64,000 nucleotides of DNA, from NCBI RefSeq assembly GCF_003334355.1, contig NZ_QOWP01000005.1; one strand, 5' to 3'. Positions 3,766 to 21,463 of the stretch are shown here, piece after piece; within the stretch, counting starts at the first letter, position 1, and every line of letters starts with the position of its first letter. The position numbers were made by a program, and so were the translations under genes. The DNA is from Escherichia coli (GTDB lineage Bacteria; Pseudomonadota; Gammaproteobacteria; Enterobacterales; Enterobacteriaceae). The notes beneath the pieces are model-generated. The model was not told where the DNA came from. It saw only the letters and a program-made list of their open reading frames with translations, and made no database searches.

Positions 3766-4338
3766 TTGACACTGTCATCGCAACATTATCTGGTGATCAC
3801 TGCGTTGGGTGCCGATCGCCCTGGAATTGTGAACACCATCACCCGTCATGTCAGTAGTTGCGGCTGTAATATTGAAGACAGTCGCCTGGCGATGCTGGGA
3901 GAAGAGTTCACGTTTATCATGCTGCTTTCCGGTTCATGGAATGCCATTACTCTGATTGAATCAACGTTACCGTTGAAAGGTGCAGAACTGGATCTTTTAA
4001 TCGTGATGAAGCGCACGACGGCGCGTCCGCGTCCGCCAATGCCAGCATCTGTCTGGGTTCAGGTCGATGTGGCAGACTCCCCGCATTTAATTGAACGCTT
4101 CACAGCACTTTTCGACGCGCATCATATGAACATTGCGGAGCTGGTGTCGCGCACGCAACCTGCTGAAAATGAACGGGCTGCGCAGTTGCATATTCAGATA
4201 ACCGCCCACAGCCCCGCATCTGCGGACGCAGCAAATATTGAGCAAGCGTTCAAAGCCCTATGTACAGAACTCAATGCACAAGGCAGTATTAACGTCGTCA
4301 ATTATTCCCAACATGATGAACAGGATGGAGTTAAGTAA
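3766..4338 (+). CDS. gcvR: Glycine cleavage system transcriptional repressor GcvR (ACT-domain protein)
   Basis: ORF 3700..4338; the conserved protein begins at TTG 3766 (…TLSSQHYLVITALGADRPGIV…), giving 190 aa. Its stop overlaps the bcp ATG by 1 nt. Confidence 0.85.
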   Translation: MTLSSQHYLVITALGADRPGIVNTITRHVSSCGCNIEDSRLAMLGEEFTFIMLLSGSWNAITLIESTLPLKGAELDLLIVMKRTTARPRPPMPASVWVQVDVADSPHLIERFTALFDAHHMNIAELVSRTQPAENERAAQLHIQITAHSPASADAANIEQAFKALCTELNAQGSINVVNYSQHDEQDGVK

Positions 4339-4808
4339 TGAATCCACTGAAAGCCGGTGATATCGCACCGAAATTTAGCTTGCCGGATCAAGACGGAGAA
4401 CAAGTTAATTTGACCGACTTCCAGGGACAGCGTGTTCTGGTTTATTTCTACCCGAAAGCCATGACCCCCGGCTGTACCGTACAGGCCTGCGGCTTACGCG
4501 ATAACATGGATGAGTTGAAAAAAGCGGGCGTTGATGTGCTGGGTATCAGCACCGATAAACCCGAAAAACTCTCCCGTTTTGCGGAAAAAGAGCTGCTTAA
4601 CTTTACGCTCCTGTCTGATGAGGACCACCAGGTGTGCGAACAATTCGGCGTCTGGGGTGAAAAGTCCTTCATGGGCAAAACCTACGATGGTATTCATCGC
4701 ATCAGCTTCCTGATTGACGCTGATGGCAAAATCGAACATGTCTTTGACGATTTCAAAACCAGCAATCACCACGACGTTGTGCTGAACTGGCTGAAAGAAC
4801 ACGCCTGA
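4338..4808 (+). CDS. bcp: Thiol peroxidase / peroxiredoxin Bcp
   Basis: 156-aa ORF MNPLKAGDIAPKFSLPDQDGEQV... with the peroxiredoxin active-site region TPGCTVQAC. Confidence 0.95.
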   Translation: MNPLKAGDIAPKFSLPDQDGEQVNLTDFQGQRVLVYFYPKAMTPGCTVQACGLRDNMDELKKAGVDVLGISTDKPEKLSRFAEKELLNFTLLSDEDHQVCEQFGVWGEKSFMGKTYDGIHRISFLIDADGKIEHVFDDFKTSNHHDVVLNWLKEHA

Positions 4809-5003
4809 TTACTCTGCTCCATTCCGTGCTGGCTGCGCTTGCGGCCAGCATACCTCACTTCTCGTGATCAAGATCACATTCTCGCTTTCCCCTGCGACAC
4901 GGGTGTCGAATCCATTTTTTGCTGAACGTTAATGACCATCATTTTTGTACCGTTCAGAATCCAGTCAATACATAACTTATTGAATATATTGAGTTAATCA
5001 GAA

Positions 5004-5019
5004 TGGCATCCTTTATGCA
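5004..5019 (+). promoter_or_regulatory. Sigma-54 (-24/-12) promoter of the hyf operon
   Basis: tggcatcctttatgca matches TGGCAC-N5-TTGCA with conserved GG and GC, about 40 bp upstream of hyfA; the operon also encodes the sigma-54 enhancer-binding protein HyfR. Confidence 0.6.
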
Positions 5020-5060
5020 ATATGAAATGCAATGTTTCATATCATTTTCAAGGAGCCGAC

Positions 5061-5678
5061 ATGAACCGCTTTGTGGTGGCCGAACCACTGTGGTGTACAG
5101 GATGTAATACCTGTCTCGCTGCCTGTTCGGACGTGCATAAAACGCAAGGTTTACAGCAACACCCGCGCCTGGCCCTGGCGAAGACGTCAACAATCACTGC
5201 CCCTGTCGTGTGTCATCACTGTGAGGAAGCCCCTTGCCTGCAGGTCTGCCCGGTCAATGCCATCTCTCAGAGGGATGATGCGATCCAACTCAACGAAAGC
5301 CTCTGTATTGGCTGCAAGCTTTGCGCCGTGGTCTGCCCATTTGGCGCAATCAGCGCTTCAGGAAGCCGTCCGGTGAATGCCCATGCGCAATATGTTTTTC
5401 AGGCTGAAGGCTCACTCAAAAACGGCGAAGAAAACGTGCTGCCCCAACATGCGTTGCTGCGCTGGGAACCGGGTGTCCAGACCGTCGCGGTGAAATGCGA
5501 CCTGTGTGATTTCTTGCCAGAAGGTCCGGCCTGCGTTCGCGCTTGCCCGAATCAGGCGTTACGGCTGATCACCGACGATAGCCTGCAACGTCAGATGAAA
5601 GAAAAACAGCGCCTTGCCGCAAGCTGGTTTGCCAATGGCGGGGAGGATCCCCTTTCCCTCACTCAGGAGCAACGCTAA
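5061..5678 (+). CDS. hyfA: Hydrogenase-4 component A, 4Fe-4S ferredoxin-type subunit
   Basis: ORF 5022..5678; start at MNRFVVAEPLWCTGCNTCLAAC gives 205 aa; several CxxCxxCxxxCP iron-sulfur motifs. Confidence 0.93.
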   Translation: MNRFVVAEPLWCTGCNTCLAACSDVHKTQGLQQHPRLALAKTSTITAPVVCHHCEEAPCLQVCPVNAISQRDDAIQLNESLCIGCKLCAVVCPFGAISASGSRPVNAHAQYVFQAEGSLKNGEENVLPQHALLRWEPGVQTVAVKCDLCDFLPEGPACVRACPNQALRLITDDSLQRQMKEKQRLAASWFANGGEDPLSLTQEQR

Positions 5679-7696
5679 TGGATGCCCTGCAATTATTAAC
5701 CTGGTCGCTGATCCTCTATCTGTTTGCCAGTCTGGCTTCGCTGTTTTTACTCGGTCTGGACAGACTGGCTATTAAGCTTTCCGGCATCACATCGCTGGTG
5801 GGCGGCGTGATTGGCATCATCAGCGGAATTACGCAATTACATGCTGGTGTAACTTTAGTCGCCCATTTTGCCACCCCTTTTGACTTTGCCGATTTAACCC
5901 TGCGAATGGATAGCCTCTCGGCATTTATGGTGCTGGTTATCTCCTTGCTGGTGGTGGTTTGTTCGCTCTATTCATTGACTTATATGCGCGAATACGAGGG
6001 CAAAGGCGCGGCGGCGATGGGCTTCTTTATGAATCTTTTCATCGCATCGATGGTTGCCCTGCTGGTGATGGACAACGCTTTTTGGTTCATCGTGCTGTTT
6101 GAAATGATGTCGCTGTCTTCCTGGTTTCTGGTCATTGCCAGGCAGGATAAAACGTCGATCAACGCTGGCATGCTCTACTTTTTTATCGCCCACGCCGGAT
6201 CGGTGCTGATAATGATCGCCTTCTTGCTGATGGGGCGCGAAAGCGGCAGCCTCGATTTTGCCAGTTTCCGCACGCTTTCACTTTCTCCGGGGCTGGCGTC
6301 GGCGGTGTTCCTGCTGGCCTTTTTCGGTTTTGGCGCGAAAGCCGGGATGATGCCGTTGCACAGCTGGTTGCCGCGCGCTCACCCTGCCGCACCATCGCAC
6401 GCTTCAGCGTTGATGTCTGGCGTAATGGTCAAAATCGGTATTTTCGGCATCCTGAAAGTGGCGATGGATCTGCTGGCGCAAACGGGTTTGCCGCTGTGGT
6501 GGGGCATTCTGGTGATGGCGATCGGCGCAATCTCCGCGCTCCTGGGCGTGCTGTATGCGCTGGCGGAACAGGATATCAAACGGCTACTGGCCTGGAGTAC
6601 CGTCGAAAACGTCGGCATTATTTTGCTGGCGGTCGGTGTGGCGATGGTCGGTCTGTCACTGCACGACCCGCTGCTCACCGTGGTTGGACTGCTCGGCGCA
6701 CTGTTTCATCTGCTCAACCATGCGCTGTTCAAAGGGCTGCTATTTCTCGGCGCGGGCGCGATTATTTCGCGTTTGCATACCCACGACATGGAAAAAATGG
6801 GGGCACTGGCGAAACGGATGCCGTGGACAGCCGCAGCATGCCTGATTGGTTGCCTGGCGATATCAGCCCTTCCTCCGCTGAATGGTTTTATCAGCGAATG
6901 GTACACCTGGCAGTCGCTGTTCTCACTAAGTCGTGTGGAAGCCGTAGCGCTACAACTTGCGGGTCCTATTGCTATGGTAATGCTGGCAGTCACTGGTGGG
7001 CTGGCAGTAATGTGCTTCGTAAAAATGTACGGTATTACTTTCTGTGGTGCGCCGCGCAGTACACACGCTGAAGAGGCACAGGAAGTGCCAAATACGATGA
7101 TCGTCGCCATGCTACTGCTCGCGGCACTCTGCGTATTAATTGCGCTTAGTGCCAGTTGGCTGGCACCGAAGATAATGCATATTGCCCATGCGTTTACCGA
7201 TACCCCTCCCGTCACTGTCGCCAGCGGAATAGCACTTGTACCCGGCACGTTTCATACACGGGTCACTCCTTCATTACTGTTGCTGTTACTACTGGCGATG
7301 CCTTTGCTGCCTGGCCTTTACTGGCTGTGGTGTCGTTCGCGCCGCGCAGCGTTTCGTCGCACAGGAGATGCCTGGGCATGCGGCTACAGCTGGGAAAATG
7401 CGATGGCCCCGTCAGGCAATGGCGTGATGCAGCCGCTGCGTGTGGTCTTTTCTGCGCTATTTCGTCTACGACAACAGCTCGACCCTACGCTGAGGCTAAA
7501 TAAAGGTCTTGCGCACGTCACCGCCAGGGCTCAGAGCACAGAACCCTTCTGGGATGAGCGGGTGATCCGCCCCATCGTGAGCGCCACCCAACGGCTGGCC
7601 AAAGAAATACAGCATCTGCAAAGCGGCGACTTTCGTCTCTATTGCCTGTATGTGGTCGCCGCACTGGTTGTGCTGCTAATCGCTATTGCCGTCTAA
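5678..7696 (+). CDS. hyfB: Hydrogenase-4 component B, NuoL/HycC-like membrane antiporter subunit
   Basis: 672-aa polytopic membrane ORF (MDALQLLTWSLILYLFASL...); its ATG overlaps the hyfA stop. Confidence 0.93.
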   Translation: MDALQLLTWSLILYLFASLASLFLLGLDRLAIKLSGITSLVGGVIGIISGITQLHAGVTLVAHFATPFDFADLTLRMDSLSAFMVLVISLLVVVCSLYSLTYMREYEGKGAAAMGFFMNLFIASMVALLVMDNAFWFIVLFEMMSLSSWFLVIARQDKTSINAGMLYFFIAHAGSVLIMIAFLLMGRESGSLDFASFRTLSLSPGLASAVFLLAFFGFGAKAGMMPLHSWLPRAHPAAPSHASALMSGVMVKIGIFGILKVAMDLLAQTGLPLWWGILVMAIGAISALLGVLYALAEQDIKRLLAWSTVENVGIILLAVGVAMVGLSLHDPLLTVVGLLGALFHLLNHALFKGLLFLGAGAIISRLHTHDMEKMGALAKRMPWTAAACLIGCLAISALPPLNGFISEWYTWQSLFSLSRVEAVALQLAGPIAMVMLAVTGGLAVMCFVKMYGITFCGAPRSTHAEEAQEVPNTMIVAMLLLAALCVLIALSASWLAPKIMHIAHAFTDTPPVTVASGIALVPGTFHTRVTPSLLLLLLLAMPLLPGLYWLWCRSRRAAFRRTGDAWACGYSWENAMAPSGNGVMQPLRVVFSALFRLRQQLDPTLRLNKGLAHVTARAQSTEPFWDERVIRPIVSATQRLAKEIQHLQSGDFRLYCLYVVAALVVLLIAIAV

Positions 7697-7706
7697 GGAA
7701 ATCACC

Positions 7707-8653
7707 ATGAGACAAACTCTTTGCGACGGATATCTGGTCATTTTTGCGTTAGCACAGGCCGTGATTCTGCTGATGCTAACCCCACTTTTTACGGGTATTT
7801 CCCGGCAGATACGCGCGCGTATGCACTCCCGCCGCGGGCCGGAGATCTGGCAGGATTATCGCGATATCCACAAACTGTTTAAACGCCAGGAAGTTGCGCC
7901 TATATCTTCAGGTCTGATGTTCCGCCTGATGCCGTGGGTATTAATCAGCAGCATGCTGGTGCTGGCGATGGCCCTACCACTATTTATTACCGTTTCCCTT
8001 TTGCGGGCGGCGGCGATCTGATCACCCTTATCTATCTTCTTGCCCTGTTTCGTTTTTTCTTTGCTCTTTCAGGGCTGGATACCGGAAGCCCGTTTGCGGG
8101 AGTCGGTGCCAGTCGCGAGTTGACGCTCGGCATTCTGGTCGAACCCATGCTCATTCTCTCACTGCTGGTATTGGCGCTGATAGCGGATTCCACGCATATC
8201 GAGATGATCAGCAATACGCTGGCGATGGGCTGGAACTCGCCGCTAACCACCGTACTGGCGTTACTGGCCTGTGGTTTTGCCTGCTTCATAGAGATGGGAA
8301 AAATTCCCTTTGATGTTGCTGAAGCAGAACAGGAATTACAGGAAGGCCCGCTGACCGAATATTCCGGTGCCGGGCTGGCGTTGGCGAAATGGGGACTGGG
8401 GCTGAAACAGGTCGTGATGGCAGCACTGTTTGTGGCCCTGTTTCTGCCCTTTGGGCGCGCGCAAGAACTTTCTCTCACCTGCCTGCTGACTTCACTTGTC
8501 GTTACGCTGCTCAAGGTTTTGCTGATTTTTGTACTGGCTTCAATCGCAGAAAACACGCTGGCACGCGGGCGTTTTTTACTCATTCACCATGTGACCTGGC
8601 TTGGCTTCAGCCTTGCTGCGCTTGCATGGGTCTTCTGGTTAACCGGTCTGTAA
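7707..8653 (+). pseudogene. hyfC: Hydrogenase-4 component C (HycD/NuoH-like membrane subunit), reading frame interrupted
   Basis: N-terminal part MRQTLCDGYLVIFALAQ... (frame of 7707) ends at TGA 8019-8021; the rest (...FPFAGGGDLITLIYLL...WVFWLTGL*) is open only in the -1 frame (track ORF 7934..8653). The span is 947 nt, one base short of an intact 316-codon gene; the break sits at the ccc/tttt run 7996-8002. Confidence 0.85.
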
Positions 8654-8669
8654 GGAGCACTGACGGAAT

Positions 8670-10108
8670 ATGGAAAATCTTGCTCTGACGACGTTAATGC
8701 TGCCTTTTATCGGCGCACTGGTCGTTTCGTTTTCGCCACAACGTCGGGCCGCCGAATGGGGGTTTTGTTCGCCGCACTGACCACGCTGTGCATGTTGTCG
8801 CTGATCTCCGCGTTTTATCAGGCCGATAAAGTTGCCGTCACGTTGACGTTGGTCAACGTGGGGGATGTGGCATTGTTTGGCCTGGTCATTGATCGCGTGA
8901 GTACGCTGATTCTGTTTGTGGTGGTGTTTCTCGGTTTGCTGGTCACGATCTACTCCACGGGTTATCTGACGGATAAAAATCGCGAACACCCGCATAACGG
9001 CACGAATCGTTATTACGCATTTTTGCTGGTGTTTATCGGCGCGATGGCGGGACTGGTACTCTCCTCGACGCTGCTCGGTCAGTTGTTGTTTTTTGAAATT
9101 ACGGGCGGCTGCTCCTGGGCGTTGATCAGTTATTACCAGAGCGATAAAGCGCAGCGTTCAGCACTAAAAGCGTTACTTATCACTCATATCGGCTCGTTGG
9201 GGTTGTATCTTGCCGCCGCCACGCTGTTTTTGCAGACCGGAACGTTTGCGCTTAGCGCGATGAGCGAGTTACACGGCGACGCACGTTATCTGGTTTATGG
9301 CGGCATCCTGTTTGCCGCGTGGGGGAAATCGGCCCAGCTACCGATGCAAGCGTGGCTACCGGACGCAATGGAAGCGCCAACACCGATCAGCGCCTATCTC
9401 CACGCCGCATCGATGGTGAAAGTGGGCGTTTACATTTTTGCCCGCGCCATTATCGACGGCGGCAATATCCCGCATGTGATTGGCGGCGTTGGCATGGTCA
9501 TGGCCCTGGTCACCATTCTTTATGGATTTCTGATGTATTTACCACAGCAGGATATGAAGCGGTTGCTGGCCTGGTCGACCATCACTCAACTTGGCTGGAT
9601 GTTCTTCGGCTTGTCGCTCTCCATCTTCGGCTCGCGGCTGGCGCTGGAGGGTAGCATCGCCTACATCGTCAACCACGCGTTCGCTAAAAGCCTGTTTTTC
9701 CTTGTAGCAGGTGCGCTGAGTTACAGCTGCGGCACGCGCTTGTTGCCGCGTCTGCGTGGCGTATTGCACACCCTGCCGTTGCCTGGCGTGGGTTTCTGCG
9801 TGGCAGCGCTGGCAATTACCGGCGTGCCGCCGTTCAACGGCTTCTTCAGTAAATTCCCGCTGTTTGCTGCCGGTTTTGCGTTGTCAGTGGAGTACTGGAT
9901 CCTGCTGCCCGCCATGATTCTGCTGATGATTGAATCGGTCGCCAGTTTCGCCTGGTTTATTCGCTGGTTTGGTCGCGTCGTGCCTGGCAAACCGAGCGAG
10001 GCCGTCGCCGATGCCGCACCGCTGCCAGGGTCAATGCGCCTGGTGTTGATTGTACTGATTGTGATGTCGCTGATTTCCAGCGTAATCGCCGCGACCTGGT
10101 TGCAGTAA
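8670..10108 (+). pseudogene. hyfD: Hydrogenase-4 component D (NuoM/N-like membrane subunit), reading frame interrupted
   Basis: An SD (aggag) plus ATG at 8670 encodes MENLALTTLMLPFIGALVVSFSPQRRAAEW... and stops at TGA 8778-8780; the main body (GVLFAALTTLCMLS...ATWLQ*) continues in the -1 frame to 10108 (track ORF 8756..10108). The span is 1439 nt, one base short of an intact 480-codon gene; the break is at the G5 run 8758-8762. Confidence 0.85.
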
Positions 10109-10119
10109 GGAGATGATGA

Positions 10120-10770
10120 ATGACCGGTTCTATGATCGTAAATAATCTGGCGGGACTGATGATGCTGACATCACTGTTTGTGATTAGCGTCAAAAGCTAT
10201 CGCCTGTCATGCGGATTTTACGCCTGCCAGTCACTGGTGCTGGTGTCTATTTTCGCCACCCTCTCGTGCCTGTTCGCCGCAGAGCAACTGCTGATCTGGT
10301 CCGCCAGCGCCTTTATCACCAAAGTGCTGCTGGTACCGTTAATCATGACTTACGCTGCACGAAATATTCCCCAGAACATCCCGGAAAAAGCGTTATTCGG
10401 TCCGGCAATGATGGCACTGCTCGCGGCGTTAATTGTCCTGCTTTGCGCATTTGTCGTTCAGCCCGTGAAGCTACCGATGGCTACCGGGCTGAAACCGGCG
10501 CTGGCGGTAGCGTTAGGTCATTTTCTGCTTGGCCTGCTGTGCATTGTCAGCCAGCGCAATATCCTGCGGCAAATTTTTGGTTACTGCCTGATGGAAAACG
10601 GCTCCCATCTGGTGCTGGCGCTTCTTGCCTGGCGAGCACCGGAACTGGTGGAAATAGGTATCGCTACCGACGCCATCTTCGCCGTCATTGTGATGGTGTT
10701 ACTGGCAAGAAAAATATGGCGTACCCACGGCACGCTGGACGTGAACAACTTGACCGCGCTGAAGGGATAA
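10120..10770 (+). CDS. hyfE: Hydrogenase-4 component E (small integral membrane subunit)
   Basis: 216-aa hydrophobic [27 protein letters not shown]... Confidence 0.92.
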
Positions 10771-10774
10771 TGAG

Positions 10775-12355
10775 ATGAGTTATTCTGTGATGTTCGCTTT
10801 ACTCCTGCTCACGCCGCTGCTTTTTTCGCTGCTCTGTTTTGCCTGCCGGAAACGGAGACTTTCTGCGACTCGCACGGTGACCGTATTACATAGCTTAGGG
10901 ATCACACTGCTGCTGATTCTGGCACTCTGGGTGGTCCAAACTGCCGCTGATGCAGGAGAAATATTCGCTGCGGGACTGTGGCTTCATATTGATGGTCTGG
11001 GCGGTTTGTTCCTCGCCATTCTTGGTGTGATTGGCTTTCTCACCGGTATTTACTCGATTGGCTACATGCGTCATGAAGTGGCACACGGCGAGCTTTCACC
11101 CGTTACGCTGTGCGATTACTACGGTTTCTTCCATCTGTTTTTGTTCACCATGCTGCTGGTTGTTACCAGCAATAACCTGATTGTGATGTGGGCGGCGATC
11201 GAAGCCACCACCTTAAGCTCGGCGTTTCTGGTAGGCATTTACGGTCAGCGTTCATCGCTGGAAGCTGCATGGAAGTACATCATTATTTGTACTGTTGGTG
11301 TCGCTTTTGGTCTGTTCGGTACCGTGCTGGTATACGCCAACGCCGCCAGCGTTATGCCGCAGGCAGAAATGGCGATATTCTGGAGCGAGGTTCTTAAGCA
11401 ATCGTCCTTGCTTGACCCAACATTAATGCTGTTGGCCTTTGTGTTTTTGCTAATTGGCTTTGGTACCAAAACCGGGCTATTTCCCATGCACGCCTGGCTG
11501 CCGGATGCTCACAGTGAAGCGCCGAGTCCGGTCAGCGCCCTGCTCTCCGCCGTATTGCTGAACTGCGCGCTGTTGGTGCTGATTCGCTATTACATCATTA
11601 TTTGCCAAGCCATCGGCAGCGATTTCCCCAACCGGTTGTTGCTCATCTTCGGCATGTTGTCGGTTGCCGTGGCGGCATTTTTCATTCTGGTACAGCGGGA
11701 CATTAAGCGTCTGCTGGCGTACTCCAGCGTGGAGAACATGGGGCTGGTCGCGGTGGCGCTAGGCATTGGCGGGCCGCTGGGAATTTTTGCCGCGCTGCTG
11801 CACATCTTAAACCACAGTCTGGCAAAAACGCTGCTGTTCTGCGGTTCCGGCAATGTACTGCTCAAGTACGGCACGCGCGATCTCAACGTCGTCTGTGGGA
11901 TGCTCAAAATCATGCCATTTACCGCCGTGCTGTTTGGCGGCGGTGCGCTGGCGCTGGCAGGGATGCCGCCCTTCAACATTTTTCTTAGCGAATTTATGAC
12001 CATTACCGCCGGACTGGCACGTAATCACCTGCTGATTATCGTCCTGCTGTTATTGCTGTTAACGCTGGTGCTGGCGGGCCTGGTACGGATGGCAGCGCGG
12101 GTGTTAATGGCGAAACCGCCGCAGGCCGTTAACCGGGGTGATCTCGGCTGGTTGACCACCTCGCCAATGGTGATTCTGCTGGTCATGATGCTGGCGATGG
12201 GAACGCATATTCCACAACCTGTCATCAGGATCCTGGCGGGCGCTTCCACTATAGTCCTCTCAGGGACGCACGACCTGCCTGCACAACGTAGCACCTGGCA
12301 TGATTTTTTGCCTTCAGGCACCGCATCTGTTTCGGAGAAACACAGTGAACGTTAA
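10775..12355 (+). CDS. hyfF: Hydrogenase-4 component F (NuoL/M/N-family membrane subunit)
   Basis: 526-aa polytopic membrane ORF ([20 protein letters not shown]...). Confidence 0.92.
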
Positions 12356-14060
12356 TTCATCGTCAAATCGTGGCGAAGCGATTCTCGCCGCCCTGAAAAC
12401 GCAGTTCCCCGGCGCGGTGCTGGATGAAGAGCGACAAACGCCTGAACAGGTCACCATTACGGTGAAAATCAATCTGCTGCCTGACGTTGTACATTATCTT
12501 TATTATCAACATGATGGCTGGCTTCCGGTCCTGTTTGGCAACGACGAGCGGACACTTAACGGTCATTACGCGGTTTATTATGCCCTTTCTATGGAAGGGG
12601 CCGAAAAATGCTGGATCGTAGTGAAGGCACTGGTCGATGCCGACAGTCGGGAGTTTCCGTCAGTCACACCGCGCGTCCCTGCCGCGGTCTGGGGCGAGCG
12701 AGAAATTCGCGATATGTACGGGCTGATTCCGGTTGGCCTGCCGGATCAGCGTCGCCTGGTGTTGCCCGATGACTGGCCGGAAGATATGCATCCGCTGCGC
12801 AAAGATGCGATGGATTATCGACTGCGCCCTGAACCGACGACTGATTCCGAAACGTATCCGTTTATCAATGAGGGCAACAGCGATGCGCAGGTGATCCCTG
12901 TCGGCCCGCTGCATATCACCTCCGATGAACCGGGTCACTTCCGCTTGTTTGTGGATGGCGAGCAAATTGTCGATGCTGATTACCGCCTGTTTTATGTCCA
13001 TCGCGGCATGGAGAAACTGGCAGAAACGCGGATGGGCTACAACGAAGTGACCTTCTTATCAGACCGCGTGTGTGGGATTTGCGGTTTTGCCCACAGTGTG
13101 GCCTATACCAACTCGGTTGAAAATGCACTGGGGATTGAGGTGCCGCAACGAGCGCATACCATTCGCTCGATTCTGCTGGAAGTCGAACGGCTACACAGTC
13201 ATTTGCTCAACCTTGGCCTCTCCTGCCATTTTGTTGGTTTTGATACCGGCTTTATGCAATTTTTCCGCGTGCGGGAAAAGTCGATGACGATGGCGGAATT
13301 GCTGACCGGGTCGCGTAAAACCTACGGTCTGAATCTGATTGGTGGTGTTCGCCGCGATATTCTCAAAGAGCAACGTCTGCAAACGCTGAAACTGGTGCGC
13401 GAGATGCGCGCCGACGTGTCGGAGCTGGTAGAGATGCTGCTTGCTACGCCGAATATGGAACAACGCACTCAGGGCATTGGCATTCTCGACCGACAAATCG
13501 CCCGTGATTATAGCCCTGTAGGGCCGCTGATCCGCGGCAGTGGTTTTGCCCGTGATTTGCGCTTTGATCACCCCTACGCCGACTACGGCAATATTCCAAA
13601 AACACTGTTTACCTTCACCGGCGGCGATGTTTTCTCCCGCGTGATGGTCCGTGTCAAAGAGACGTTTGATTCGCTGGCAATGCTGGAATTTGCCCTCGAC
13701 AACATGCCGGATACCCCGCTGCTGACCGAAGGCTTTAGCTATAAACCTCACGCATTCGCGCTGGGCTTTGTTGAAGCGCCACGCGGTGAAGACGTGCACT
13801 GGAGCATGCTCGGTGATAACCAAAAATTGTTCCGCTGGCGCTGTCGTGCCGCCACCTACGCCAACTGGCCAGTGCTGCGTTACATGCTACGCGGCAATAC
13901 CGTTTCTGACGCACCGCTGATTATCGGTAGCCTTGATCCCTGCTACTCCTGTACCGACCGTGTGACGCTGGTAGATGTGCGCAAGCGCCAGTCAAAAACC
14001 GTGCCGTATAAAGAGATCGAACGCTACGGCATTGATCGTAACCGTTCGCCGCTGAAGTAA
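12345..14060 (+). CDS. hyfG: Hydrogenase-4 [NiFe] large catalytic subunit
   Basis: Track ORF 12300..14060; most plausible start is GTG 12345 ((M)[17 protein letters not shown]...), overlapping the hyfF end. NiFe-binding motifs [11 protein letters not shown] (N-terminal) and DPCYSCTDR (C-terminal). Exact start uncertain. Confidence 0.9.
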
Positions 14061-14069
14061 GGACAGAAG

Positions 14070-14615
14070 ATGCTGAAGTTACTGAAAACTATTATGCGCG
14101 CCGGAACCGCGACGGTGAAATATCCCTTCGCGCCACTGGAGGTCAGCCCAGGCTTTCGCGGGAAACCGGACCTGATGCCCAGCCAATGTATTGCCTGCGG
14201 TGCCTGCGCCTGTGCTTGTCCGGCAAATGCGCTGACTATCCAGACCGACGACCAGCAAAATTCGCGCACCTGGCAGCTCTATCTGGGGCGTTGTATTTAC
14301 TGCGGACGTTGTGAAGAAGTGTGCCCGACCAGAGCCATCCAGCTTACCAATAACTTTGAACTGACCGTCACCAATAAAGCCGATCTCTATACCCGCGCGA
14401 CGTTCCATCTACAACGTTGCAGCCGTTGCGAACGCCCGTTTGCCCCGCAAAAAACCGTCGCACTGGCTGCTGAATTGTTGGCACAGCAACAAAATGCGCC
14501 ACAAAACCGCGAAATGTTGCGGGCGCAAGCGAGCGTCTGCCCGGAGTGCAAACAACGCGCGACGCTGATCAACGACGATACAGATGTACCGCTGGTGGCT
14601 AAGGAGCAGCTATGA
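14070..14615 (+). CDS. hyfH: Hydrogenase-4 component H, 2x[4Fe-4S] ferredoxin-like subunit
   Basis: 181-aa ORF with two CxxCxxCxxxCP motifs ([24 protein letters not shown]). Confidence 0.93.
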
Positions 14616-15370
14616 GTCCAGTGCTTACACAACATGTCAGCCAGCCCATCACGCTGGATGAGCAAACGCAAAAGATGAAGCGGCATTTGCTACAGGATAT
14701 CCGTCGCTCGGCTTACGTTTATCGCGTCGATTGCGGCGGCTGCAACGCCTGTGAAATCGAAATTTTTGCCGCCATCACACCCGTATTCGACGCAGAACGT
14801 TTTGGCATTAAGGTTGTTTCATCACCGCGTCACGCCGATATTTTGTTATTTACTGGCGCAGTCACCCGGGCGATGCGTATGCCTGCACTTCGGGCGTATG
14901 AGTCTGCCCCCGATCATAAAATTTGTGTTTCCTACGGCGCGTGCGGTGTCGGCGGCGGTATTTTCCACGATCTCTACAGCGTCTGGGGCGGTAGCGACAC
15001 CATTGTCCCCATTGATGTTTGGATCCCCGGCAGCCCGCCAACACCGGCCGCCACCATTCACGGTTTCGCCGTGGCGCTCGGTTTGCTGCAACGGAAGATT
15101 CACGCGGTGGATTATCGCGATCCCACCGGGGTGACTATGCAACCGTTGTGGCCGCAGATCCCGCCATCACAGCGTATCGCCATTGAGCGAGAAGCGCGGC
15201 GGCTGGCGGGCTATCGTCAGGGGCGAGAAATTTGCGATCGGCTCCTGCGCCATTTAAGCGACGATCCTACAGGAAATCGGGTTAACACCTGGTTGCGCGA
15301 TGCCGACGATCCACGTCTCAATAGTATCGTTCAGCAACTCTTTCGCGTACTCCGGGGGTTACATGACTGA
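14612..15370 (+). CDS. hyfI: Hydrogenase-4 small subunit (NuoB-like)
   Basis: 252-aa ORF; [10 protein letters not shown] cluster-binding region; start overlaps the hyfH stop (ATGA). Confidence 0.93.
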
Positions 15371-15776
15371 AGAGTGCGGGGAAATTGTTTTCTGGACGCT
15401 GCGAAAAAAGTTTGTCGCCAGTAGCGACGAGATGCCGGAACACAGCTCTCAGGTAATGTATTACTCGCTGGCTATCGGTCATCACGTTGGCGTGATTGAT
15501 TGTCTGAATGTCGCCTTCCCCTGCCCACTGACGGAATACGAAGATTGGCTTGCACTGGTCGAAGAGGAGCAAGCCCGACGTAAGATGCTGGGGGTGATGA
15601 CTTTTGGTGAGATTGTTATTGACGCCAGCCACACCGCCTTGTTGACCCGGGCATTCGCGCCACTGGCGGATGACGCGACGTCTGTGTGGCAGGCGCGTAG
15701 CATTCAATTCATTCATCTGTTGGATGAAATTGTGCAGGAACCGGCCATCTATCTGATGGCCAGAAAAATTACGTGA
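15363..15776 (+). CDS. hyfJ: Hydrogenase-4 component J (HycH-like maturation factor)
   Basis: Track ORF 15300..15776; start at internal Met ([23 protein letters not shown]...) gives 137 aa, overlapping the hyfI 3' end. Confidence 0.9.
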
Positions 15777-15805
15777 GAAGGATTTCTCATTAATAAGGAC
15801 TGTTG

Positions 15806-17818
15806 ATGGCTATGTCAGACGAGGCGATGTTTGCCCCGCCGCAAGGAATAACAATTGAAGCGGTAAACGGAATGCTCGCGGAGCGGTTAGCGCAGAAACA
15901 CGGTAAGGCGTCTTTATTACGCGCCTTCATCCCGCTGCCGCCGCCGTTCAGCCCGGTACAACTTATTGAACTGCATGTTCTCAAAAGCAACTTCTATTAC
16001 CGCTACCATGATGATGGCAGCGATGTGACGGCAACAACAGAGTATCAGGGCGAGATGGTCGATTATTCGCGTCACGCCGTCCTTCTCGGCAGTAGTGGAA
16101 TGGCGGAGCTACGCTTTATTCGCACCCACGGCAGTCGTTTTACTCCCCAGGATTGCACACTGTTTAACTGGCTGGCGCGGATAATCACCCCGGTTCTGCA
16201 ATCATGGCTCAATGATGAAGAACAGCAGGTGGCGCTGCGTTTGCTGGAGAAAGATCGCGATCATCATCGGGTACTGGTTGATATTACTAATGCAGTGCTG
16301 TCACATCTTGATCTCGACGATCTGATCGCTGACGTCGCTCGTGAGATCCATCATTTTTTCGGTCTGGCTTCAGTCAGTATGGTACTGGGCGATCATCGAA
16401 AGAACGAGAAGTTTAGCCTGTGGTGCAGCGATCTTTCTGCCTCACATTGTGCGTGTCTGCCACGCAATATGCCTGGCGACAGTGTATTGCTGACACAAAC
16501 GCTACAAACCCGACAACCGACCTTGACGCACCGTGCAGACGATCTGTTTCTCTGGCAACGCGACCCGTTATTACTCTTACTTGCATCTAACGGCTGCGAA
16601 TCTGCGCTCCTTATACCGCTTACCTTTGGCAACCATACACCGGGTGCATTGTTGCTGGCGCATACCTCTTCCACTCTCTTTAGTGAGGAAAACTGCCAGC
16701 TACTACAACACATAGCCGATCGCATCGCTATTGCCGTTGGCAATGCCGATGCCTGGCGTAGCATGACCGATTTGCAGGAAAGTTTGCAGCAAGAAAACCA
16801 CCAGCTTAGCGAGCAGCTCCTTTCGAATCTGGGCGTCGGTGACATTATCTATCAAAGCCAGGCAATGGAAGACCTGCTCCAGCAGGTAGATATTGTGGCG
16901 AAGAGCGACAGTACAGTGTTGATTTGTGGTGAAACCGGAACCGGCAAAGAGGTGATCGCCAGAGCGATCCATCAACTTAGCCCGCGACACGACAAGCCGC
17001 TGGTCAAAATCAACTGCGCTGCCATCCCCGCCAGTCTTCTGGAAAGTGAGTTATTCGGTCATGACAAAGGGGCGTTTACTGGTGCGATTAATACCCATCG
17101 TGGTCGTTTTGAAATTGCCGATGGCGGCACGTTGTTTCTCGATGAAATTGGCGATCTGCCGTTAGAACTTCAGCCTAAACTGCTGCGCGTATTGCAGGAA
17201 CGGGAGATTGAGCGTCTCGGCGGGAGTAGAACGATCCCGGTGAATGTCAGAGTCATTGCCGCCACCAACCGTGATTTGTGGCAAATGGTTGAAGATCGCC
17301 AGTTTCGCAGCGATCTCTTTTATCGCCTGAATGTCTTCCCACTGGAATTGCCGCCGCTACGCGACCGTCCGGAAGATATCCCTCTTTTAGCAAAGCATTT
17401 CACGCAAAAAATGGCGCGCCATATGAATCGTTCAATTGACGCCATCCCGACCGAGGCGCTACGCCAGTTGATGTCGTGGGACTGGCCGGGCAACGTGCGC
17501 GAGCTGGAAAACGTGATTGAGCGAGCGGTACTGCTGACTCGCGGTAACAGTCTGAATTTACATCTTAATGTCCGACAAAGCCGTTTACTGCCGACGCTAA
17601 ATGAAGATTCAGCGCTTCGCAGTTCAATGGCGCAGTTGCTGCACCCGACGACGCCAGAGAATGACGAAGAAGAACGTCAGCGCATTGTTCAGGTATTGCG
17701 AGAAACCAATGGCATTGTTGCCGGGCCCCGTGGCGCGGCGACACGATTAGGGATGAAGCGCACCACGCTGCTGTCACGAATGCAGCGTCTGGGGATCTCG
17801 GTTCGCGAGGTGTTGTAA
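15806..17818 (+). CDS. hyfR: Sigma-54-dependent transcriptional activator of the hyf operon (FhlA paralog)
   Basis: 670 aa from MAMSDEAMF...; AAA+ sigma-54 interaction domain with Walker A GETGTGKE and the GAFTGA motif ([15 protein letters not shown]); C-terminal HTH. Confidence 0.93.
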
Positions 17819-17839
17819 TCTGCTTTTGCAGGAGTATGC

Positions 17840-18688
17840 ATGAGCAACAAACTCTCTTTCGACTTGCAGTTGAGCGCCAGAAAAGCGGCAATCGCTGAAC
17901 GGATTGCCGCCCATAAAATTGCCCGCAGTAAAGTGTCGGTCTTTTTAATGGCGATGTCCGCTGGCGTGTTTATGGCGATCGGATTTACTTTTTACCTTTC
18001 CGTTATCGCCGATGCCCCGTCTTCACAGGCATTAACCCATCTGGTGGGCGGCCTTTGCTTTACACTCGGCTTTATTTTGCTGGCGGTTTGCGGCACCAGC
18101 CTGTTCACCTCGTCGGTAATGACGGTGATGGCAAAAAGTCGGGGCGTTATTAGTTGGCGAACTTGGCTGATTAACGCACTTCTGGTGGCCTGCGGTAATC
18201 TGGCAGGTATTGCCTGTTTCAGTTTGTTAATCTGGTTTTCCGGGCTGGTGATGAGTGAAAACGCGATGTGGGGAGTCGCGGTTTTACACTGCGCCGAGGG
18301 CAAAATGCATCATACATTTACTGAATCTGTCAGCCTCGGCATTATGTGCAATCTGATGGTTTGCCTGGCGCTTTGGATGAGTTATTGCGGGCGTTCGTTA
18401 TGCGACAAAATCGTCGCCATGATTTTGCCCATCACCCTGTTTGTCGCCAGTGGCTTTGAGCACTGTATCGCCAATTTGTTTGTGATTCCGTTCGCCATTG
18501 CCATTCGCCATTTCGCCCCTCCCCCCTTCTGGCAACTGGCGCACAGTAGCGCAGACAATTTTCCGGCACTGACGGTAAGCCATTTTATTACCGCCAATCT
18601 GCTCCCGGTGATGCTGGGTAATATTATCGGCGGTGCAGTGCTGGTGAGTATGTGTTATCGGGCTATTTATTTACGTCAGGAATCCTGA
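17840..18688 (+). CDS. focB: Formate channel FocB (formate/nitrite transporter family)
   Basis: 282-aa membrane ORF (MSNKLSFDLQLSARKAAIAER...), last gene of the hyf cluster. Confidence 0.9.
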   Translation: MSNKLSFDLQLSARKAAIAERIAAHKIARSKVSVFLMAMSAGVFMAIGFTFYLSVIADAPSSQALTHLVGGLCFTLGFILLAVCGTSLFTSSVMTVMAKSRGVISWRTWLINALLVACGNLAGIACFSLLIWFSGLVMSENAMWGVAVLHCAEGKMHHTFTESVSLGIMCNLMVCLALWMSYCGRSLCDKIVAMILPITLFVASGFEHCIANLFVIPFAIAIRHFAPPPFWQLAHSSADNFPALTVSHFITANLLPVMLGNIIGGAVLVSMCYRAIYLRQES

Positions 18689-18693
18689 AAAAT

Positions 18694-18722
18694 CAGCCCG
18701 GCGAAACAGTTCGTCGGGCTGA
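18694..18722. terminator. Bidirectional intrinsic terminator between convergent focB and perM
   Basis: GC-rich hairpin cagcccggcg-aaacagtt-cgtcgggctg with A-rich and T-rich flanks, lying in the 37-bp gap between the two convergent stop codons. Confidence 0.6.
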
Positions 18723-18725
18723 AGA

Positions 18726-19787
18726 TTATTCTTGCGCTATTTGCCCATCGGGCCAGGCGTGGATCACGGCTTTGATCAGGGTCGCCAATGGAATGGCGAA
18801 GAATACGCCCCAGAATCCCCACAAACCACCGAAGATCACCACCGATAAAATAATCACCAGCGGATGCAGGTTAACCGCTTCGGAGAACAACACCGGTACT
18901 AACAGGTTGCCGTCCAGCGCCTGAATAATCAGATACACTGCGAAGCAGCTCCAGAATTCCGTGCCTGCACCAAACTGGAATAGCGCCACGCCAACCACCG
19001 GAATGGTCACCACAAATGCGCCAATGTACGGAATAAGTACCGAGAAGCCGACCAGCACCGCCAGCAGCAGCGAATAGTTCAGCCCAAAGAGCAAGAACCC
19101 CAGCCAGGTGGCGATCCCCACCACGATCATCTCCAGCACTTTGCCGCGGATATAGTTGGTGATTTGTTGATTCATCTCCTTCCACACCTGTCCTGCCAGT
19201 CCACGGTTGCGCGGCAGCACCCGACGAACGGCGTTCAGCATCTGCTCTTTGTCTTTCAGCAGGAAGAAGACCATCAATGGCACCAGCACCAGATAGACGG
19301 CTATGGTCAGCAAACCGACCAGCGAGGCGAGGGAAATTTTCACCACCGAATCGCCCATGGTCAGCATCCGACTGCGCATATTTTCGGCCATTGCATCAAT
19401 AATGCCCGCATCCATTAACGCCGGATAGCGGCGCGGCAACGTGGCGGCAAAGTCAGAAAGCTTATTGAGCATCCCCGGCATATCGCGGATTAAGTAGATG
19501 CCCTGTTGCCAGGCGATAGGCAGTACCACGAACGCCATCAGTAGCAATATACCGACGAAAACCACCAATACAATCGACGTCGCCCAGCGGCGGGAGCAGC
19601 CAATAGATTGCAGGCGCACGGTTGGCCATTCCAGCAAATAGGCCAGCACAATAGCCACCAGCAACGGAGCAAGCAGGCCACTAAAGAAAAAGATAATGCC
19701 AAATCCGGCAACTAAAATAACCAGCAAGGCAATCGCTTCCGGGTCGCTAAAACGGCGGCGATACCATTGCATCAACATTTCGAGCAT
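18726..19787 (-). CDS. perM: AI-2E family transporter PerM (YfgO), putative permease
   Basis: 353-aa polytopic membrane ORF MLEMLMQWYRRRFSDPEAIALLVILVAGF... Confidence 0.9.
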   Translation of the reverse strand: MLEMLMQWYRRRFSDPEAIALLVILVAGFGIIFFFSGLLAPLLVAIVLAYLLEWPTVRLQSIGCSRRWATSIVLVVFVGILLLMAFVVLPIAWQQGIYLIRDMPGMLNKLSDFAATLPRRYPALMDAGIIDAMAENMRSRMLTMGDSVVKISLASLVGLLTIAVYLVLVPLMVFFLLKDKEQMLNAVRRVLPRNRGLAGQVWKEMNQQITNYIRGKVLEMIVVGIATWLGFLLFGLNYSLLLAVLVGFSVLIPYIGAFVVTIPVVGVALFQFGAGTEFWSCFAVYLIIQALDGNLLVPVLFSEAVNLHPLVIILSVVIFGGLWGFWGVFFAIPLATLIKAVIHAWPDGQIAQE

Positions 19788-19999
19788 AAAGACCTTCCCT
19801 GAACCTCAAGAGCGGGATTGCGATCAGCAATTGTATCGAAATGTCACAAAAAAGACTTCGCTTTTTATGACGGATTCAGGAAACTGAAAAGTCATTTGAG
19901 TGGGCTAATCTTCGCCGTTACACTCAAAGGCGGCGCGGTGGGAACGATATTTCACAGTATCGGTCAAATGACTATCTTCAGAAATACAGGATAGAGGTT

Positions 20000-21463
20000 A
20001 TGTTCAGGCAGTTGAAAAAAAACCTGGTTGCAACCCTCATTGCTGCTATGACCATTGGTCAGGTAGCCCCGGCGTTTGCCGACAGCGCAGACACCTTGCC
20101 GGATATGGGAACCTCCGCAGGAAGCACGCTTTCCATTGGTCAGGAAATGCAGATGGGCGACTATTATGTCCGCCAGCTACGCGGCAGCGCGCCGTTAATT
20201 AATGACCCGCTGTTAACGCAATATATTAATTCGCTGGGGATGCGTCTGGTTTCGCATGCCAATTCGGTTAAGACACCGTTTCATTTTTTTCTGATCAACA
20301 ACGACGAAATTAACGCCTTTGCTTTCTTTGGCGGCAACGTGGTGCTGCACTCTGCCCTGTTCCGTTATTCCGATAACGAAAGTCAACTGGCTTCAGTTAT
20401 GGCGCACGAAATCTCCCACGTCACCCAACGTCACCTGGCGCGAGCGATGGAAGATCAGCAGCGCAGCGCGCCGCTGACCTGGGTCGGCGCGTTAGGTTCT
20501 ATTTTACTGGCGATGGCCAGTCCGCAGGCGGGGATGGCGGCACTGACCGGTACACTGGCGGGAACGCGCCAGGGAATGATCAGCTTCACCCAGCAAAATG
20601 AACAGGAAGCGGACCGCATTGGTATTCAGGTGCTGCAACGCTCGGGATTCGATCCGCAGGCGATGCCAACCTTCCTCGAAAAATTACTCGATCAGGCGCG
20701 TTACTCCTCGCGCCCGCCGGAAATTTTATTGACTCACCCGTTGCCGGAAAGTCGTCTGGCAGATGCCCGCAACCGTGCTAATCAGATGCGCCCGATGGTG
20801 GTGCAGTCGTCGGAAGATTTCTATCTGGCGAAAGCGCGCACACTGGGGATGTATAATTCCGGACGTAACCAGCTCACCAGTGATTTGCTGGATGAATGGG
20901 CGAAAGGAAACGTTCGTCAGCAACGAGCAGCACAATATGGTCGTGCTTTACAGGCGATGGAAGCCAATAAATACGACGAGGCGCGTAAAACGCTGCAACC
21001 GTTACTGGCGGCAGAACCTGGCAACGCATGGTATCTCGATCTGGCTACTGATATCGATCTTGGGCAAAACAAAGCCAATGAGGCGATCAATCGTCTGAAA
21101 AATGCCCGCGATTTACGCACCAATCCGGTGTTGCAGCTCAACCTGGCGAACGCTTATCTGCAAGGCGGTCAACCACAAGAAGCGGCCAATATTCTGAATC
21201 GCTACACCTTTAATAATAAAGATGACAGCAACGGCTGGGATTTGCTGGCACAGGCGGAAGCCGCGCTAAATAACCGCGATCAGGAACTGGCTGCGCGAGC
21301 AGAAGGTTATGCGCTCGCCGGGCGACTCGATCAGGCCATTTCGCTGTTGAGTAGCGCCAGTTCGCAGGTGAAATTAGGCAGCCTGCAACAAGCGCGTTAC
21401 GATGCGCGCATCGACCAGTTGCGCCAGCTGCAGGAACGCTTTAAGCCTTATACCAAGATGTAA
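20000..21463 (+). CDS. bepA: Periplasmic beta-barrel assembly-enhancing protease BepA (M48 metalloprotease with TPR domain)
   Basis: 487-aa ORF with signal peptide ([27 protein letters not shown]) and HEISH (HExxH) zinc motif. Confidence 0.93.

Follow-up and report, generated by a model that had tools for sequence, protein, structure and literature searches.

The closest described relatives of the locus analysed here are other operons for hydrogenase-4 (Hyd-4), which in Escherichia coli K-12 MG1655 is encoded by the hyf operon (b2481-b2492) reportedly described by Andrews et al. in 1997. The formate hydrogenlyase-2 (FHL-2) systems of Pectobacterium atrosepticum and Trabulsiella guamensis share the hyfA-J gene set, a five-subunit membrane arm and the HyfR regulator; their operons are intact and active and also encode a protease, HyfK. 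In P. atrosepticum, deletion of hyfDEF leaves H2 production unreduced and deletion of hyfBCDEF brings it to about 5%; without the membrane arm the large subunit is stable and the enzyme is physiologically inactive (PMC7384014). The FHL-1 complex of E. coli (hyc), solved by cryo-electron microscopy (7Z0S/7Z0T), has a paralogous core (HyfG/HycE, HyfI/HycG and HyfC/HycD) but only two membrane subunits, to which hyf adds HyfD, HyfE and HyfF. We have analyzed the hyf locus at positions 5004 to 18688 of a 64,000-nucleotide stretch of E. coli DNA (contig NZ_QOWP01000005.1; the whole stretch is hereafter the window). This is very probably a canonical E. coli Hyd-4/FHL-2 locus, in a natural phylogroup-A-type haplotype, that is being pseudogenised. 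The membrane subunit genes hyfC and hyfD each lack one base, the small subunit HyfI carries a mutation, and hyfK is missing, hyfR following directly after hyfJ; these features set it apart from the operons of P. atrosepticum and T. guamensis. The promoter, hyfR, focB and the seven other structural open reading frames (ORFs) are intact. It is a known operon already annotated as pseudogenised, and its decay is of an ordinary kind and not a sign of a new system.

The locus was identified by an ORF map of positions 4000 to 20000 and by megablast of positions 5004 to 18688 against 5,426 complete E. coli genomes. A match was found in 4,299 of these genomes, and in 4,292 of them it covers at least 80% of the query; the absence of hyf from B2 strains (PMC2617782) fits the 1,127 genomes without a match. 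The locus is chromosomal and, as a preliminary description of this DNA had stated, contains all twelve genes, hyfABCDEFGHIJ-hyfR-focB, in operon order and with tight or overlapping junctions (-11 to +29 nt). Both the order and the flanking genes, bcp upstream and the convergent yfgO downstream, are those of K-12, as are the overlapping junctions and the sigma-54 promoter, and nucleotide identity to annotated loci ranges from 100.0% to 98.9%. Relative to K-12 MG1655 there are 145 substitutions within the twelve genes and exactly three indels, namely the loss of one base in hyfC, the loss of one base in hyfD and a gain of 48 bases in hyfG. The ten other ORFs are open, their products are 97-100% identical to those of K-12, and all have the K-12 length except HyfG (571 instead of 555 amino acids, aa). 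K-12 differs in having intact hyfC and hyfD genes and a Cys at HyfI position 141, but its hyfG lacks the 48 bp. The closest complete genome, PSS-12 (NZ_AP027697), carries the same three lesions and over 16.7 kb differs by 6 single nucleotide polymorphisms (SNPs) and no indels; the differences are HyfE D161G, HyfI Q161R, FocB R2S, two SNPs in the hyfC pseudogene and one silent SNP in hyfJ.

The broken frames of HyfC and HyfD noted in the preliminary description are evident in the alignment to K-12, where a single base is missing from each gene:

7707 to 8653, + strand: hyfC pseudogene, HycD/NuoH-like core membrane subunit, 947 nt instead of 948, with a frameshift and internal stops
7996 to 7998, + strand: hyfC lesion, a C-run of 3 instead of 4 at codon 97
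8670 to 10108, + strand: hyfD pseudogene, NuoL/M/N-like antiporter subunit, 1439 nt instead of 1440
8758 to 8762, + strand: hyfD lesion, a G-run of 5 instead of 6 at codon 30
8756 to 10108, + strand: residual 450-aa hyfD ORF, from an ATG brought in frame by the deletion; HyfD minus its first 29 residues

Translation of hyfC from the ATG at 7707 reaches a TGA at 8019-8021 after the shift and yields 104 aa instead of 315, while hyfD, from the ATG at 8670, stops at 8778-8780 after 36 aa instead of 479. The stops fall 8 (hyfC) and 6 (hyfD) codons past the shift sites. With the missing base restored, HyfC is identical to its K-12 counterpart at 310 of 315 residues and HyfD at 478 of 479. The 104-aa hyfC product keeps about 2 of 7 or more hydrophobic segments, and the locus thus has no intact HycD/NuoH-like membrane anchor. 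Among the three antiporter-like subunits and HyfE, the frames of HyfB, HyfE and HyfF are fine and that of HyfD is shifted at codon 30. In the local sequence no clear Shine-Dalgarno motif is seen upstream of the ATG at 8756, and the predicted 450-aa restart product is without the first hydrophobic segment of HyfD (residues 1-19). Because HyfD aligns to NuoL from residue 4, and to both NuoL and MrpA/D from its N-terminus, this segment is part of the conserved antiporter fold. HyfC and its counterpart in the solved FHL-1 complex, HycD, are co-linear (E = 9e-95); judged by this homology, HyfC is no accessory subunit but a core anchor of the HycD/NuoH type, which links the catalytic arm to the membrane. 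By analogy with the P. atrosepticum deletions, the hyfC lesion would probably disable the whole enzyme.

The distribution of the two lesions was determined with 37-nt allele-specific megablast queries, centred so that each 28-nt seed spans the lesion. Among the 5,426 complete genomes, 306 carry the hyfC lesion allele and 1,103 the hyfD lesion allele, the latter with 997 exact matches. Carriers include REL606, several BL21(DE3) assemblies, E. coli C and ATCC 8739, and those of the hyfD lesion also take in many Shiga toxin-producing (STEC) and enterotoxigenic (ETEC) strains. The E. coli B lineage (REL606, NC_012967, and BL21(DE3)) has frameshifts in hyfC and hyfD that are identical to those of the window and annotated as pseudogenes; in the RefSeq annotations that we checked, both genes are labelled "frameshifted" in PSS-12, BL21(DE3), B-3008 and REL606. 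A concatenated query for the hyfC and hyfD lesions and the HyfI C141S allele described below gave a union of 1,109 genomes, compared with 1,103 for the hyfD allele alone, and therefore at least 300 of the 306 genomes with the hyfC lesion also carry the hyfD lesion. The SNP haplotype flanking position 8757 is common to all seven of the hyfD-lesion strains sampled, though their hyfC haplotypes differ. This pattern points to the hyfD lesion being one old mutation that was spread by recombination, not the outcome of repeated slippage or of sequencing error. Our literature searches turned up no relevant paper on the hyfC and hyfD frameshifts.

Since both lesions are one-nucleotide contractions of homopolymers, a typical error of some sequencing platforms, it might be supposed that they arose in sequencing or assembly and that the operon is intact, an outcome for which the preliminary description had allowed if resequencing were to restore both frames. 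However, homopolymers of 4 and 6 nt are short, many laboratories have contributed to the 306 and 1,103 complete genomes in which the identical alleles are found, the hyfD allele is tied to a specific flanking SNP haplotype, and the window and PSS-12 differ by 6 SNPs and have both lesions in common. The comparison with orthologous loci that had been called for has thus revealed the same lesions in hundreds of independently sequenced complete genomes, REL606, BL21(DE3) and ATCC 8739 carrying both. The chance that they are errors is negligible in our estimation, and the lesion-spanning queries together with the REL606 and BL21 annotation effectively rule this explanation out. We regard both as fixed pseudogene alleles, passed on by vertical inheritance and by recombination, present in many genomes and linked to their flanking haplotype.

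The homopolymer runs could also be viewed as reversible switches that make Hyd-4 phase-variable, all the more so as a C-run in focB (18521-18526) is found as -1 and +1 variants in other strains. The tracts are merely 3-4 and 5-6 nt long, though, and the alleles are stable over hundreds of genomes and tied to haplotype blocks; the tract lengths are the same in the window, PSS-12, B-3008, BL21 and REL606. Moreover, two switches would need to revert jointly, and the nonsense codons and the deletions of 5 to 216 nt that other strains carry cannot revert at all. Phase variation is accordingly very improbable. Nor do the genes behave as ones expressed by programmed frameshifting or slippage, for each is a single unshifted ORF in K-12, O157:H7 and all of the more divergent strains, and it is the single-frame HyfC and HyfD proteins that match HycD and NuoL co-linearly.

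A further lesion is found in the small subunit, which had been considered undamaged. Its ORF is indeed intact, but one codon has lost a conserved Cys:

14612 to 15370, + strand: hyfI, 252 aa, frame open, C141S
15032 to 15034, + strand: hyfI codon 141, AGC (Ser) instead of TGC (Cys), loss of the PGCPP ligand

Residue 141 is the Cys of the PGCPP motif, which in NuoB-type subunits is a ligand of the [4Fe-4S] cluster nearest to the active site. It aligns to a Cys in HycG (7Z0S_G; E = 8.5e-97 for the match of HyfI to this chain), in MbhJ and in mitochondrial NDUFS7. By this alignment three of the four Cys ligands of the proximal [4Fe-4S] cluster are left in HyfI, and the locus does not encode a NuoB-like small subunit with the full set. 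The Ser141 allele is present in 23 complete genomes and occurs on two different hyfI haplotypes, which would reflect either recurrent mutation or a conversion tract of less than 115 nt. Within the genome collection, C141S is combined with the hyfC lesion only in PSS-12.

These distributions are consistent with a stepwise loss of function. The hyfD lesion, which is common, would have come first and would take out the extra antiporter module, after which H2 production could still be possible, as in the hyfDEF deletion of P. atrosepticum. The hyfC lesion would then have arisen within the hyfD-lesion background, with loss of the joint between the catalytic arm and the membrane and hence of a physiologically active enzyme, and C141S may have followed later, under relaxed selection. 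A simple nested series from hyfD to hyfC to C141S was also considered; its first step holds, but C141S is not nested in the hyfC-lesion clade.

The preliminary description had also proposed that the soluble arm might be retained while the membrane arm decays. Pairwise ratios of nonsynonymous to synonymous substitution (dN/dS) give this no support. Among the lesioned A/B1-type haplotypes the ratio is 0.20 for the soluble-arm genes and 0.15 for the membrane-arm genes, and among the mostly intact divergent haplotypes it is 0.10 and 0.12, respectively; overall it is 0.15 among lesioned and 0.11 among mostly intact haplotypes. Disruptive events number 11 in the 6.6 kb of membrane-arm genes and 3 in the 4.1 kb of soluble-arm genes (1.66 vs 0.74 per kb), an excess that does not reach significance when corrected for gene length (p = 0.16). 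Faster decay of the membrane arm is therefore seen as a nonsignificant trend. HyfI C141S, the core role of HyfC and the hyfG and hyfI lesions of other strains likewise lend no support to a retained soluble arm. In sum, the description of a hyf operon with two damaged membrane subunits stands, but C141S and the dN/dS values do not bear out an undamaged HyfI and a retained soluble arm.

In its stronger form, the idea of a retained arm would have the catalytic subunits (HyfA, HyfG, HyfH, HyfI and HyfJ) kept under selection and in use, either docked to the paralogous Hyc membrane subunits HycC/HycD or with HyfC and HyfD still made by way of ribosomal frameshifting, slippage in transcription or a restart from the ATG at 8756. 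Every soluble-arm ORF is open, HyfG has its apparently ancestral full length and intact NiFe motifs, dN/dS is below 1 and the 450-aa HyfD ORF remains. The C141S replacement nevertheless takes away a conserved cluster ligand, the soluble-arm dN/dS of lesioned haplotypes is not below that of the membrane arm (0.20 vs 0.15), and other lineages have frameshifts in hyfG and hyfI, a stop in hyfG or the 48-bp hyfG deletion. Rescue of either frame would take a +1 shift, for which no known recoding context is present at the two sites; the stops, moreover, lie 8 and 6 codons after the shift sites. Runs of 3 and 5 nt are far below the lengths known for transcriptional slippage. The P. atrosepticum precedent can be read both ways, the catalytic subunit being stable without the membrane arm but the enzyme physiologically inactive (PMC7384014). 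On balance we consider a catalytic arm that is maintained and used to be unlikely.

We thus favor ongoing pseudogenisation of the whole locus. Several points weigh against so simple a view. Only two of the twelve ORFs are broken, and dN/dS lies far under 1, which implies either that the decay is recent or that parts of the locus are still under selection. Ser occasionally substitutes for Cys as an Fe-S ligand, so that C141S is probably, and not certainly, damaging. The 450-aa HyfD restart ORF (8756-10108) exists, and its expression is putative. Finally, the essential role of HyfC is presumed from the joint deletion of hyfBCDEF in P. atrosepticum and from homology to HycD. Premature stops in hyfC and hyfD would probably reduce the expression of downstream genes by polarity, and most likely the locus confers no Hyd-4 activity, a prediction made from the sequence; the intact hyfR and focB genes could act on their own. 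In B-type strains, including BL21, no Hyd-4 contribution to hydrogen metabolism is to be expected.

To place these lesions in the context of the species, the locus was aligned with 18 other loci, 14 of which were picked at even steps down the identity ranking. The resulting catalogue is as follows:

hyfB: one 1-nt deletion, at window-equivalent position 6268 (5 strains), and one stop
hyfC: one 1-nt deletion
hyfD: two different 1-nt deletions (the second at 9102) and deletions of 208 and 216 nt
hyfF: three different stops and one 1-nt deletion
hyfG: a stop and the 48-nt deletion
hyfI: a 1-nt deletion at 14959
hyfR: a 5-nt deletion
focB: -1 and +1 changes in the C-run

Those that occur in a single long-read assembly, such as the 1-nt hyfF deletion of LB858871 and the 5-nt hyfR deletion of A11, could be assembly errors. 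Inactivating lesions, which vary between strains, are present in 10 of the 14 evenly sampled loci. The other four are fully intact (O157:H7 C1-057, MMC-J-0066, 2014C-3075 and 3426); with 98.0-98.7% identity to our locus, they come from the more divergent classes of that ranking. Of the 4,299 loci, no more than 1,623 carry none of the four alleles that were counted. The intact twelve-gene operons of O157:H7 and of more divergent lineages are thus a better starting point for testing Hyd-4 as an active, energy-conserving formate hydrogenlyase.

The haplotype structure of our locus is mosaic as well. From hyfA to hyfF (5061-12355) it differs from B-3008 and BL21 by 0-3 SNPs per gene, whereas the genes from hyfG to hyfR (12345-17818) differ from B-3008 by 19, 6, 11, 3 and 17 SNPs per gene. 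The latter segment carries the long forms of hyfG and hyfH and is closest to strain PKF8; BL21 and B-3008, in contrast, have the 48-bp hyfG deletion, a 6-nt in-frame deletion in hyfH and Cys141. With its first segment near-identical to the B lineage and its second segment of another haplotype, the locus is therefore a recombinant. From the alignments, hyf in A/B1-type strains appears as a patchwork of independent lesions that have been reshuffled by recombination.

The third indel relative to K-12 concerns the catalytic subunit and reflects on the reference and not on our locus:

12345 to 14060, + strand: hyfG, 571 aa, intact full-length [NiFe] large subunit, GTG start
13500 to 13547, + strand: 48 nt present in the window and deleted in K-12, HyfG residues 386-401, flanked by GCCCGTGATT

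In line with the preliminary description, the NiFe motifs of HyfG are intact; the N-terminal motif (RxCGxCxxxH) is at residue 241 and the C-terminal one (DPCxxCxxR), as DPCYSCTDR, at 531, within a full-length large-subunit core. HyfG is co-linear with HycE (7Z0S_E, E = 1e-292), free of gaps save for the affinity-tag insert of the solved chain, and the long form aligns without gaps to both HycE and MbhL and is co-linear with HyfG orthologs from 15 genera. The 16-residue segment is present in the HyfG orthologs of all 15 other genera compared, with 10 of its 16 residues identical in all of them; the orthologs of P. atrosepticum and T. guamensis, which are 75-80% identical, have the same segment. 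The 571-aa form is on this evidence the ancestral one, and the K-12 reference is without 16 strongly conserved residues. The 10-bp direct repeat GCCCGTGATT that flanks the 48 nt bears the signature of a slippage deletion in K-12 hyfG. The short allele is carried by 2,113 of the 4,299 hyf-bearing complete genomes, among them the sampled K-12 laboratory strains, BL21, O111, O121 and 042. An AlphaFold2 model of HyfG made from a 17-sequence alignment was too poor for structural inference (mean pLDDT, the predicted local distance difference test score, of 58.5, and below 50 over residues 384-401).

The K-12 allele, on which all Hyd-4 genetics has been done, is thus an unsafe standard for an intact hyf operon, its HyfG being without the conserved segment that is kept in the window. 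Finney et al. (2020) placed MG1655 hyf under strong promoters, with HyfG fused to the HycE tail, obtained no H2 and concluded that "additional, unknown, biosynthetic problems" exist (PMC7654741). The 16-residue deletion could contribute to the inactivity of K-12 Hyd-4, which persists even on overexpression. We suggest, tentatively, that no single hyf allele is the intact reference and that the HyfG deletion is the very problem met in the engineered K-12 strains; this is possible but doubtful, and if it were true, whether E. coli Hyd-4 works would become directly testable. No paper that mentions the K-12 hyfG deletion was found in a search that left much of the older hyf literature outside its reach, so it may have been noted already. 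The deletion and the intact operons elsewhere together offer a moderate lead for the Hyd-4 field.

The regulatory features of the locus are well preserved:

5004 to 5019, + strand: sigma-54 (-24/-12) hyf promoter, TGGCATCCTTTATGCA, the sole motif match in the window, same in K-12, supported by genomic SELEX (systematic evolution of ligands by exponential enrichment; gSELEX)
15806 to 17818, + strand: hyfR, 670 aa, intact sigma-54 enhancer-binding activator, 664 of 670 residues identical to K-12
18693 to 18722, no strand: terminator-like hairpin, 13 bp, GC-rich, between the convergent focB and yfgO stops

The candidate sigma-54 promoter before hyfA, already recognized in the preliminary description, lies 42 nt upstream of the hyfA ATG (5061), and the 64 kb contain no other match to TGGCAY-N5-WTGCW. 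One chance match in the window is unremarkable (0.67 expected; one or more in 51 of 100 shuffles), and a match within the 252-nt spacer on the correct strand has a chance of about 0.001 by an arithmetic estimate. The whole spacer upstream of hyfA matches K-12 save for 2 SNPs. In gSELEX with RpoN holoenzyme, the strongest peak genome-wide fell in the bcp-hyfA spacer (PMC8743547). HyfR has the GAFTGA motif (422) and the Walker motifs (A, GETGTGK, 375; B, DEIGDL, 446) attributed to it earlier, so that the promoter is accompanied by an AAA+ enhancer-binding activator. The best NCBIfam model for HyfR is FhlA, at 642 bits and thus under the cut-off of 830, which marks HyfR as a paralog.

A perfect inverted repeat, CGACAC-GG-GTGTCG, at 4895-4908 precedes the -24/-12 promoter by about 100 nt and is kept in K-12. 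Its position is typical of an upstream activator site, and it is a candidate site for a sigma-54 activator (HyfR or FhlA). Sigma-70-like sites are not enriched (8 found vs 10.5 expected), and an Rfam scan of positions 4000 to 20000 found no element. The hairpin occupies the 37 nt that separate the focB stop codon (18688) from that of yfgO (18726) and is probably a terminator shared by the two genes.

The remaining genes of the locus are all intact:

5061 to 5678, + strand: hyfA, 205 aa, ferredoxin-like 4Fe-4S subunit, 200 of 205 residues identical to K-12, annotated as hyfA in PSS-12
5678 to 7696, + strand: hyfB, 672 aa, antiporter-like membrane subunit, HycC homolog, 663 of 672 residues identical to K-12
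10120 to 10770, + strand: hyfE, 216 aa, 216 of 216 residues identical to K-12; NF008556, 369.5 bits (cut-off 136)
10775 to 12355, + strand: hyfF, 526 aa, antiporter-like, 525 of 526 residues identical to K-12; NF005041, 1177.7 bits (cut-off 951)
14070 to 14615, + strand: hyfH, 181 aa, 178 of 181 residues identical to K-12; NF006076, 364 bits (cut-off 270)
15363 to 15776, + strand: hyfJ, 137 aa, HycH-like, 135 of 137 residues identical to K-12; NF011664, 206.7 bits (cut-off 145)
17840 to 18688, + strand: focB, 282 aa, formate channel, 280 of 282 residues identical to K-12; NF007261, 646 bits (cut-off 499)

HyfB scores 977.7 bits against NF005086 (cut-off 667), and the curated NCBIfam cut-offs are thus passed by HyfB, HyfE, HyfF, HyfH, HyfJ and FocB. 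The hyfA start is preceded, 8 nt upstream, by an AAGGAG Shine-Dalgarno sequence. Codons 121-128 of hyfA (5421-5444) contain four clustered differences from K-12 (D121N, A126V, P127L and T128P) with no indel. In hyfH, a 6-nt in-frame length polymorphism is found in the region of 14200; the gene is 546 nt long in the window, K-12 and O157:H7 and 540 nt in BL21, B-3008, SE11, O121, T16R and PapRG-06-3. The run of six C residues in focB (18521-18526) is a mutational hotspot in other strains, being one base shorter in T16R, SE11 and PapRG-06-3 and one base longer in PKF8. Both changes frameshift focB, and the window keeps the intact length.

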